Shown: positions 9,001 to 62,518, numbered from the stretch's first letter. The stretch is 64,000 nt of DNA from Cyanobacteriota bacterium (GCA_046045965.1 JBJOKS010000005.1:159649-223648); one strand, 5' to 3'. Made by a program: numbers and translations. Notes: a model not told the origin generated them from the sequence alone.

Positions 9001-9772
9001 CGTCGAGATCACCGAAATTTTGATTAATATCTTCGATCAAATTCGTGACACTTTGGGAATCGCAAACGTTCACCTGCCGATATTCAATATGTGTACTACT
9101 TTTTATACATAATTTCTGTAAGTTTTGTATTAGCTGTTGCTTCGTTTGGTTAAGTGGCGATCGACCAGTGAGAATAATCGTTCCATGACAAATTTGTTGG
9201 GCAATTTCCTTACTAAAAATTAAACCTAAACCACCAAGTCCTCCAGTAATTAGATATTTCCCCTTTTCCTTCCAAGGGATAAGTACTTCATCGTTAGAAA
9301 TCGGTATTTCTTTCCATCCCGCAATCCGAAGTTTTCCGTTTTGATAATCAATTCTTTGGTTTAAAGGTGTTTGAGCATTAGTTTTCAGTTTGGCAACAAT
9401 ATTTTCTGCATTATCATTCGGTGCTATGGTTATTAGTTGACCAATCAAGTTTGGGTTTTCCAGATGAGCCGTCATCAGCAAACCAGCAAGACCAGCAAAA
9501 AGCTGATGTTCAGGCAAATTCCGAATCACCAACTGAAGTAGAATTTTTCCTTCTTGTTTCGTTGTGAGTAACTGTTGAATTTCTGTAAATAGCTGCCAAC
9601 CATAGCTCTGAAAACGTTCAGCGATGTTTTTTGATGGTGATTTTAGAACGAGGCAATCGATCGTTTCCATCCTGCCAACGATACTTTCTTGCATCATTCC
9701 GTCGGGTTCACAGAGAATAACCAAATGTCTGCTGTACTGCGTGATTAAGCTTAAATTTTCGGACAAACTCAC
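1..9772 (-). CDS. trans-AT PKS subunit (PKS4), 3'-truncated by window edge: KR-ACP-KS0-OMT-ACP-KS-KR-ACP-KS-...
   Basis: Not in ORF track (no stop in window). Spot translations along the gene are all in one frame. GTG at 9772 follows AGGGAG and reads MSLSENLSLITQYSRHLVILCEP. KR HAAGVIHDNF/GQADYACAN (~9772-8560); ACP ~8460-8230; KS DTMCSSS with EAAAQGSEMGD in place of HGTGT (~8115-6810); O-MT VLDIGCG (~6260-5330); ACP GITS (~5240-5010); KS NTACSSS/EAHGTAT (~4895-3655); KR HCAGIARD (~3130-1850); ACP YGIDS (~1750-1500); KS DTMCSSS/EAHGTGT (~1400-85); still in frame at the edge (AIVLSAKNTE). Confidence 0.95.
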   Translation of the reverse strand, partial: MSLSENLSLITQYSRHLVILCEPDGMMQESIVGRMETIDCLVLKSPSKNIAERFQSYGWQLFTEIQQLLTTKQEGKILLQLVIRNLPEHQLFAGLAGLLMTAHLENPNLIGQLITIAPNDNAENIVAKLKTNAQTPLNQRIDYQNGKLRIAGWKEIPISNDEVLIPWKEKGKYLITGGLGGLGLIFSKEIAQQICHGTIILTGRSPLNQTKQQLIQNLQKLCIKSSTHIEYRQVNVCDSQSVTNLIEDINQNFGDLDGIIHAAGVIHDNFIIKKTPQELEKVLAPKVMGSVNLDEATKDQPLDFFFFCSSLAGVIGNVGQADYACANAFMDCYAKYRNQLVQSHQRHGRSLSINWPLWEEGGMRVDQAIEKMMAQSIGLVAMPTSAGIHALYKAFASNQDQVMILEGDVAKLKQFFLNLPEKTVKSQGSDSETILDDRQLEEKTLDQLKTLFAETTKLPLNKIDPEEPLENYGIDSIIISQLNHKLAEKLGSISKTLFYQFQNLADLADHLARNYTDGCRKWIDCNTSIATPNIKVESVKTQPVLIANVATKQPIAIIGLSGRYPKAKTIADFWQNLQNGECCIEEIPKQRWDWQHHYHPDRNQAVKLGKSYSKWGGFLEDFDQFDPMFFNMTPREAANIDPQERLLLEESWKALEDAGYSPSCISADLRQRIGVFAGITKQGFNLYRTEFENSDRNAIFPTTSYASLVNRVSYFLNLQGPSFPIDTMCSSSLVAIHEACEYIRSGKGDMAIVGGVNLYAHPSSYLELSLGKFVSSSSICAAFEKDGDGFVPGEGVGVVILKSYDRAIKDRDHIYALIRGSAVNHDGKTNGYKTPNPEPKAAVIRQALQDSGIDARSISYIEAAAQGSEMGDGIEASALTEVFGDRHNVEGAYRIGSVKPNIGHCESASGMSQLTKVILSLHNKTLVPTLRSRELSPSIDFQRLPFELQPDLSEWKTVSVDGVEVPRRAGIMNIGAGGVNACVIVEEYPLNLEPVSDSQEPVLFVLSAKNEERLEQYVQDWLIYLKNHQNLDLSSIAYTLQVGRESMNCRLAFAVKKLGEIEQYLNRWRETRELGEVGFYGDITQRKIKNPEAVAARVKEGDADNALAVAELWVQGNTIPWDEWHNEKKLDRINGLPTYPFANRTCSIVRHENELSEAECNLENNPNLEPSGEENKVVEFYTRMSQDCDEEFQEEYLTFGAFPQRIPGFSMTRLAMNAAKYPEELEMIKEKQREVRQVLFCRENFAKIHTVLDIGCGHGTDVIQIAALYPHIQTHGFTITESQAVLGNRRIENMNLVSRAHIYHKDSSKDKFPDNCDIILGVEVTFHIRDKDALFQKMADALSDNGKILLMDYIGNLRGSIVDPNVEISIPTQPQWIDLLSKHNLIIDEIIDVSREISNYLYDPEHAEHTKHLPKVSQDSYRNYANQAIALEKGWITYNLLKLKKDTQRSEQERRNYNAQKIANQTPYSQALDEMLRSGHIPYPPMGGLKKTELSVKKSKEISPPTLNENVPNLEEIKSILINIFVNILEFAAQELKSIERLQLGELGITSVNAVELLEAINTEFDLYLPTSIIFECHSLEDLTQYIQVELGRKPIISAHHNLSSKAEKYAASVEERIPVIDKNTENDIAIIGISCRCAGAKDQEQFWQVVSQGKNCIADLNKPEWLDYIASHCSETFPIRYGMMPDLDYFDSLFFHISPREAKAMDATQRILLEECYRALEDAGYKPSSLKKQAVGTYIGAMGSASLGKGFSHFDMLGSETSILSARIAYFLDLKGPALTINTACSSSLVAIDVASKALKNGEINLAIAGGVTLYQHPGTFIAMHNAGMLSKTGQCRPFDNNADGIVVGDGVGVVILKRLSEAQRDGDAIYGIIRGCGINQDGQTSSLTVPSFVSQSELESSVYQKAKINLEDLQYIEAHGTATKLGDPIEIHALNKSFQSFTAKQKFCAIGSLKANVGHTTAAAGVLGVIKVLLSMKHQQIPPSINFDRGNQHIDFDNSPVYVNTQLKPWTLNGKGSRLAAVSSFGFSGTNAHLVLEQYIPESQTDINLFTPSVFLLSAESESALQQYAYNVKRYLEDNPSIQFERFLYTFQVGREAFTYRLALIADHQQTLIQQLKQWLEDRGKSAENEKLVSRNNQEETVLIQNLISAGKVEQLAQLWEQGTSVDWSVFYQSGLFHRLAGLPTYPFIGEYFGSDREPEIEQLPTVSSSSPETLICYPHWGEKAVTQTVESLEYERHIVLLSGFDRISVMKMQAEMPNVEFVHLAWANSLTNGTTLEKIYQDHFTQIFEIIQEIIVSKDRSKTFIQCVVPQQTEKQCLSAISGILKTAQLENPKVFGQVIEVSADETETSLLKKLNENLQCPEDKQIRYYLEQRKVLAWKELVIADRTYQTPWREGGVYLITGGAGGLGLIFAEEIASKTQSSTIILTGRSHLSLEKKKSLFYQLQKLGTRVEYWQADISNKNDVDTLIQRIIKEYGFLNGILHCAGIARDNFIIKKTSAEFQSVLAPKVAGVINLDAASKDVNLDFLVLFSSISGTMGNRGQADYAIANAFMDAFSSYRNDLVKAGQRWGQTLSINWPLWEAGGMQLEAHHKAAMKQSVGLETIDTAQGVQALVKGLASGQSQILVAGGHLPTLRKWLLREPSTEKTSNQPKTNLKGNNQEKSLTQIEKQQLQEKTLIQLKGVLGEAFGLAPSRIKASDPYERYGIDSVIILQLNQELAKVFPEISQTLFFEYQTSQALVAYLVDEYPQECMTWTGLENRKAIAKSPLSETTISESKVLNVVNSQVQEAIAIIGVSGHFSQADTLQDYWQNLQAGKDCISEIPSSRWSWEDFFVEDADEAIAQRKSYSKWGSFLEGFADFDPLFFGIPPRDVLSIDPQERLFLQTSWEALEDAGYTRDTLREIYQQQVGVFAGITKTGFDLYGPELWKRGEQVFPHTSFSSVANRTSYFLNLQGPSLSIDTMCSSSLIAIHEACEHLRRQNCQLALAGGVNLYLHPSTYVQMCALRMLSKDGKCKAFGKGGNGFVPGEGVGVVLLKPLSEAIRDRDHIYAVIRASHVNHGGKTNGYTVPNPNAQADLIRQTLNKAGVDARSISYIEAHGTGTELGDPIEITGLTQAFKKETADTGFCAIGSAKSNLGHLEAASGIAGLCKILLQLKHRQIVPSLHTEDLNPNIAFDKTPFVVQQTLSEWKRPIVEINDEVKEYPRRAGISSFGAGGSNAHLIIEEYAEENVLDYANEDIHEPVAIVLSAKNTE

Positions 9773-62518: not shown

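Follow-up and report, generated by a model that had tools for sequence, protein, structure and literature searches.

The window, a stretch of 64,000 nucleotides from a Cyanobacteriota bacterium (GCA_046045965.1, JBJOKS010000005.1:159649-223648), covers the greater part of a trans-AT PKS cluster of 85 kb that sits at the end of contig C5 (Table 1). PKS1 to PKS3 lie on the plus strand (14973-62518), and PKS4 followed by PKS5 runs leftward from 9772 on the minus strand; the reading frames of all five PKS are open. Our motif map, with KS, KR, DH, MT and ACP domains, gives the five PKS a formyl-MT-A-PCP start, 19 KS, of which four read as non-elongating, and a TE. The modules lack an integrated AT, which was searched for in two stretches of the PKS genes, and a stand-alone AT gene is present (13682-14743). 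The tolytoxin/scytophycin-family line is likewise described with 19 KS, four of them non-elongating, a formyl-Gly start and a stand-alone AT (PMC5772238). The assembly line is the same as in the tto, scp, lum, swi and mis clusters, and the layout is the same as that of Planktothrix PCC 11201, which produces tolytoxin with a split gene, and PCC 9631, which produces luminaolide B (PMC5259702). Over its N-terminal 290 residues, PKS4 shares 92% and 90% identity with the clusters of these two strains, respectively, against 75-81% with the others. Judged by orthology and by the domain order common to tto, scp and lum (19 KS, four non-elongating), the window cluster is a new member of the tolytoxin/scytophycin/luminaolide/swinholide/misakinolide family of trans-AT PKS. 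The cluster type and its 'split modules' have already been published, the part of that report considered here mentioning split modules in general and giving no cut inside a KR (PMC5772238).

Table 1. Features of the window that bear on the PKS3/PKS4 junction
Feature	Coordinates	Strand	Description
ACP, non-elongating KS11 (EAAAQGS) and O-methyltransferase	5500..8440 (approximate)	-	Follow the split KR
Intact KR inside PKS4	1853..3133	-	beta1 in cis; internal reference; profile match
N-terminal KR of PKS4	8528..9772	-	beta2 through catalytic subdomain; without beta1 and without helical docking domain; NADPH motif TGGLGGLG intact
Ribosome-binding motif GGGAG before the PKS4 GTG	9781..9785	-	Motif and start shared with L003 and L008
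Accessory genes between the divergent halves	10061..14743	+	Truncated Rieske ORF, two PhyH-type dioxygenases, methyltransferase, stand-alone AT
PKS1 and PKS2	14973..45108	+	PKS1, formyl-MT-A-PCP start and KS1-KS3; PKS2, KS4-KS6; upstream subunits of the same assembly line
PKS3	45188..62518	+	Trans-AT PKS of 5776 aa; C-terminus made of elongating KS10, flanking subdomain, linker and KR strand beta1
beta1 of KR (GTLMLQPCWIEQ), proposed donor strand	62420..62455	+	Alignments, profile score, AlphaFold
IS5-family element, left end	62488..62771	+	94% identity to a copy on C1; follows a TAA; broken farther along by other IS DNA
DDE transposase fragment, IS nest at contig end	62956..63861	+	

Several features of the cluster are recorded here in their own right. 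The DNA of the PKS3 end is 94% identical to the Planktothrix clusters and just 79-80% to the cluster of a genome of the same genus, G007 (window 8300-9800 and 61300-62480), a likeness that points to horizontal transfer between families. The Rieske-type ORF (window 10061-10417) has 118 residues versus 361 in PCC 11201 (L003:8721-9806) and is interrupted in PCC 9631 too; one tailoring step may be missing in the window strain. In PKS1, module 1 (window 20200-23100) reads KS-DH-ACP-ACP, with KR and C-MT motifs absent, yet the product is expected to be reduced and methylated there; trans-acting or neighbouring domains may serve these steps. A 130-nt repeat between the second dioxygenase gene and the methyltransferase gene (12526-12655) recurs on contigs C9 and C11 at 97-99% identity. 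Between their divergent halves, the Planktothrix clusters (L003:2245-2796, L008:3153-3704) carry an EF-hand-like gene, so judged by eye, and a second methyltransferase, neither of which is among the window ORFs in that interval. A promoter scan of 9700-10460 returned two sites against 2.8 expected. Contigs from two RNA runs cover parts of PKS3 and PKS4, coverage that as such cannot show transcription.

PKS3 is orthologous to PL11201_360002 and to the N-terminal part of a fused gene in Anabaena sp. UHCC 0451. It ends in PETFGTLMLQPCWIEQTDEISFSASPKRMFEKSERW, followed by the stop codon. The preliminary description, whose three quoted peptides are all present in the sequence, had taken this tail for the first beta-strand of a KR, and the identification is borne out on two sides. 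In the KR of PksJ from the bacillaene synthase (PDB 4J1Q), the closest solved structure (E 1e-102), which aligns from the same strand and carries beta1 in cis on a single chain, the segment LMLEPVW aligns with beta1, and the AlphaFold model of a fused orthologue places there a 12-residue strand (residues 20-31, pLDDT ~96). A profile of 140 internal trans-AT KRs gives GTLML[EQ]PxW[KQ]EQ as the first-strand consensus, with its Trp retained in 138 of 141 KR rows. On this profile GTLMLQPCWIEQ scores 36.6 bits against a seed median of 27.4, a score reached by none of 20,000 shuffles, so the match is not due to chance. Beyond beta1, the inverted repeat of an IS5-family element starts at 62488, so that the last nine codons (RMFEKSERW) and the stop of PKS3 are IS-derived. 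Contigs from three other studies bridge this junction, and run X6 tracks PKS3 to 62487 at 99% identity before diverging; since the IS is absent there, it is a later addition. An IS insertion as the cause of the split was rejected, because relatives without this IS are split as well.

PKS4 starts with a GTG at 9772 (minus strand) and its N-terminus reads SLSENLSLITQYSRHLVILCEP. The KR profile matches it from position 24 onward only, and 14 residues precede beta2 with no helix among them. The absence of beta1 from the downstream subunit holds for all ten family N-termini scored, with beta1 scores of at most 0.5 bits. Further inside PKS4 an intact KR (PETLICYPHWGEKAVTQTVESLEYERHIVLL) does read as the two pieces joined, as the preliminary description had it. 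The PKS4 start and its upstream DNA are covered by contigs in three of the four runs examined; with independent contigs across the PKS3/IS junction as well, both gene ends are real and not artefacts of assembly.

A scan of 185,579 genomes returned six loci, every one of them either fused or cut in the beta1/beta2 loop. In the two fused loci (Microcoleus C2D2 and Anabaena UHCC 0451) a single reading frame crosses the junction; the fused orthologues (L004, L006) read GTLFLKPSWIEQSIENSGSITQYNRHLVILCEP there, and the PKS3 and PKS4 ends of the window map onto them about 6 nt apart. As one gene joins the two ends at the beta1/beta2 loop in two relatives, PKS4 is the continuation of PKS3, as had been proposed. 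Two other loci, from a Nostoc MAG (L005) and Tolypothrix brevis (L007), are split but collinear, with a gap of 47-142 nt between the genes. The last two, from Planktothrix strains, resemble the window in being both split and divergent; ~54 kb lies between the halves in PCC 9631, and in PCC 11201 they are on different contigs. Homologous clusters are thus split in the same loop, a check that the preliminary description had called for. Its layout of two genes 53 kb apart on opposite strands is present in the window, but as part of the mechanism it falls away: since collinear split relatives exist, distance and orientation are incidental and stem from a rearrangement shared by a lineage. A separate KR continuation of PKS3, sought by profile search across the assembly (92% complete, 107 contigs), was not found: among 25 KR-like matches, all those of trans-AT type lie in the window cluster, and the sole one starting at beta2 is that of PKS4.

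The split is far from private to the window strain. In a rooted tree of 17 orthologue rows (16 of them different), 13 are split, SwiE and MisE included, and four are fused; DNA context was seen for five split and two fused clusters, the other rows resting on protein termini. SwiE and MisE, from the swinholide and misakinolide clusters, and unnamed orthologues begin at beta2 in the database proteins. With 13 of 17 rows split, SwiE and MisE among them, the split is not damage; it is family-wide, inherited, older than the window strain and compatible with production. The fused rows form one clade, in the unrooted tree as in the rooted one, where they are nested among split rows (quick method, key supports 89-96). 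The rooted tree needs two changes, one early fission and one re-fusion, the direction of which it does not prove. Several independent fissions, an idea raised by the differing PKS4 starts, were set aside, the rooted tree requiring two changes only. A weak look-alike of beta1 is found in frame ahead of the Planktothrix PKS4 start (equalled by 18 and 47 of 5,000 shuffles in a post hoc comparison), the one upstream of the window PKS4 being not significant (1,279 of 5,000 shuffles), and the Tolypothrix tail still tracks the fused DNA as far as the start of beta2. Such putative decayed copies would fit a fission by short duplication. The split thus described likely arose once, early in the family, through a short duplication across beta1, after which the downstream copy would have decayed and the scytophycin clade re-fused. 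As to sampling, a search of 61 relatives and 401 genomes of the phylum gave matches in the window genome and G007 only, a metagenome scan gave one locus, already known, and one misaligned row (0% identity) was retained in alignment A4. Tails of SwiD and MisD were absent among the matches listed, in which no protein exceeds ~8,000 residues.

How does this junction compare with those already described for trans-AT systems? A 2021 review lists, in the part relevant here, two classes: four-helix bundles, which include the KS/KR junction MlnD/MlnE, and the DHD at KS/DH boundaries (PMC9113145). In the four-helix type (macrolactin MlnD/MlnE, PDB 5D2E; VirA/VirFG type) the upstream subunit ends with a KS and the downstream one begins with KR-ACP (PMC9113145), as here, and the PKS3/PKS4 junction would be a variant of this known KS/KR split-module junction. 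However, the MlnD/MlnE type adds a helical pair of ~25 residues at both ends, whereas PKS3 and PKS4 have no such pair and are cut inside the KR. Neither the PKS3 C-terminus nor the PKS4 N-terminus holds a helix-turn-helix of ~25 residues, the PKS3 tail consisting of linker, beta1 and variable residues; and the KR of the four-helix-type proteins in our sample carries its own beta1, which that of PKS4 does not. In the DHD junction (gladiolin GbnD4/GbnD5), the KS is extended at its C-terminus and binds the downstream catalytic domain directly through this extension, with nothing added on that side; a link has been drawn between the extension and linker strands in the covalent RhiE KS-B di-domain (PMC9113145). 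By analogy, the PKS3/PKS4 junction would come closest to the DHD in principle, a piece of the downstream fold being carried on the upstream subunit. The DHD, however, is described in that part of the review for KS/DH only, with ~70 residues and a KS without flanking subdomain, while the junction studied here has a KR as partner, a single 12-residue KR strand as its element and a RhiE-like flanking subdomain. The boundary is accordingly not a KS/DH one with a KS lacking its flanking subdomain. In the literature searched we found no description of a KR cut after beta1, which Zeng 2016, Ueoka 2015, Kosol 2018, Helfrich and Piel 2016 or their supplements may mention.

Outside the family, beta1 is in cis in 26 of the 33 N-terminal KRs scored, mostly behind an N-terminal extension that looks by eye like a helical docking domain, versus none of the ten family ones. 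These 43 proteins were picked by eye from 65 near-N-terminal profile hits and their cluster members, and are a sample and not a census. Seven of the 33 lack beta1; P0454 and P0381 were rejected as start miscalls because longer members of their clusters carry it, which leaves P0096, P0099, P0378, P0379 and P0441, known from protein records alone. Among 481 large proteins, P0266 (24.9 bits) alone of the full-length tails from outside the family has a clear beta1 score; P0152 follows with 13.3 bits, from a partial record. P0266 ends in KS-linker-RLMLRPVWKAK, P0096 starts with a beta1-less KR, and both are on contigs with a length of 65,695. They appear to be one unrelated PKS pair cut in the same way, their adjacency being deduced from the equal contig size, and their 38-40% identity to the window proteins suggests that this cut may be of independent origin.

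Other termini and subunit boundaries are of note. After its last KS, the unrelated PKS P0458 has a C-terminus made of four LTLLTPK-like repeats. At the PKS1/PKS2 junction (window 29648/29677), PKS1 ends just after the core of the non-elongating KS3 and PKS2 starts with the KS3 flanking subdomain (MSEELIVVSART), a cut inside a structural unit that is the same in all five other genomes checked; several tails end in a look-alike of the start of the next gene (EENHE, EEDHA). The PKS2/PKS3 junction (window 45108/45188) is KR/MT. Its two genes are separate in the window and in the four genomes that showed this junction, but the Nostoc MAG protein P0124 (7,909 aa, partial) apparently runs across it. 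The family seems to use alternative fission points. Outside the window, the PKS4/PKS5 junction (G000:C5:155848/155903) is KS0/DH, with PKS4 ending in HNPWWG and PKS5 starting inside the DH N-terminus, as expected for a junction of DHD type.

Structure prediction suggests what beta1 may do in the KR fold. In the fused model, residues 177-185 form the bridging strand and residues 431-438 the last strand of the catalytic subdomain; in the model of PKS4 1-420, devoid of beta1, these shrink from nine to four and from eight to three residues. As both neighbour strands are longer when beta1 is included, it is predicted to pair with them and so to staple the structural and catalytic subdomains together. 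The beta1-less KR is modelled with the same confidence (pLDDT 91.9; TM 0.91 to 4J1Q), a value that says little about stability. We propose, with a probability of roughly 0.6, that PKS3 and PKS4 are joined by docking through strand complementation, with beta1 provided in trans. The KR of the ninth extension module is spread over two genes, with the cut in its beta1/beta2 loop. From the PKS3 end, beta1 would likely insert in trans into the groove left vacant in the PKS4 KR, where it would pair with the structural subdomain's bridging strand and with the last strand of the catalytic subdomain; the fold of the KR would thereby be completed, and KS10 would be tethered to the KR and carrier protein of its module. 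Since no KR of the line other than the N-terminal one of PKS4 would have an empty groove, specificity could be achieved without a dedicated docking pair.

The chemistry of the split module is in line with such continuity. By our own count on the motif map, with extensions counted from glycine, KS10 at the PKS3 end is the ninth elongating KS, and its KR would hence act on the carbon that we take to be C15. The split module would reduce C15, and KS11 with its O-methyltransferase would then methylate it. The name of the variant '15-O-deMe' implies a 15-O-methyl group (PMC4413203); with the methyl group deduced from this name, the C15 hydroxyl followed by O-methylation, as predicted in the preliminary description, agrees with the module count.

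The divergence of beta1 bears directly on its role. Comparison of the window with the split Nostoc MAG reveals no replacement at 29 sites of beta1, at a pS of 0.46 in the adjacent KS (P = 1.4e-8 if neutral), and a single one separates the window from Tolypothrix (P = 1.8e-6 if neutral), the neighbouring pS being 0.43-0.46 in these comparisons and the linker immediately upstream of beta1 having a pN of 0.17-0.18 plus indels. The comparison shows a signature of purifying selection on beta1 between split lineages. Synonymous sites within beta1 have also changed little, with one of seven differing, so constraint on the DNA or gene conversion may lie behind its conservation. All eight orthologous tail records, the window included, extend to the beta1 end position or beyond, whatever follows. 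In Planktothrix-type tails, the strand reads GTLILHPCRVGV in all four records (tail end LILHPCRVGV), the near-invariant Trp is lost and the score falls to 8.3 bits; compared with the window, pN is 0.27, above the local pS of 0.17, with a KS pN of 0.02. Since PCC 11201 and PCC 9631 produce despite this eroded strand, the full beta1 is not strictly needed. The tail DNA of these strains was considered as a mobile repeat and rejected, its 17-nt pattern occurring once in each of two genomes. This pattern has 11 nt in common with an adapter-like loose end of run contigs, a likeness taken as coincidence because the flanks differ and four separate records carry it.

The Planktothrix tails, which keep the first half of the strand, leave room for an alternative in which beta1 binds and steadies the KR as an accessory only, the subunits meeting mainly through KS-ACP recognition and lateral KS contacts, so that the strand can erode; the review also describes secondary contacts at junctions as mostly unknown (PMC9113145). 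We consider it unlikely, as no other docking element is visible at either the PKS3 or the PKS4 end and the altered tail RVGV is identical in four of four records, even where the linker has a deletion. It is less probable still that beta1 is a fission relic that no longer binds, KS and KR being split without a docking domain and the KR working alone. Decay of the Planktothrix strand at or above the neutral rate and the confident model of the beta1-less KR would fit such a relic, but it sits poorly with strict conservation across the window, the Nostoc MAG and Tolypothrix at a pS of 0.43-0.46, with a rooted tree that puts the split early enough in the family for a relic to have vanished, and with the beta1 copy upstream of PKS4, which did decay. 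Finally, a cluster broken by IS activity and inversion in the window strain or by assembly error, its halves not working together, is very improbable: the IS nest that immediately follows PKS3 at the contig end, the truncated Rieske gene beside the PKS4 start and the lack of a known product for the window strain would suit it, but two producing strains have the same divergent layout and PKS4 start, none of the five PKS frames is interrupted, both ends are confirmed by independent runs, and run X6 has a PKS3 end 99% identical where the IS is absent.

Docking through strand complementation, as we favour it for PKS3 and PKS4, could tentatively be extended, at somewhat less than even odds, to a general third class of trans-AT junction, in which the KR is cut after its first strand and rejoined by donor-strand complementation, the 12-residue strand being the whole docking element, with independent origins (P0266/P0096) and reversibility to a fused gene. 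How trans-AT subunits without a recognisable docking domain find each other is an open question, to which this junction offers a third answer, for which a cheap test needs only a single peptide and a 47 kDa domain, and which comes with natural controls that are fused, split with an intact strand or split with an eroded strand. Our results also correct the annotation of the mis, swi and lum junctions, which are drawn as KS/KR and run through the KR itself, so that constructs made from the annotated N-terminus are without one strand. If the third class holds true, the beta1/beta2 loop would be a natural and portable site for splitting PKS modules and, if general, a site for splitting large PKS genes.
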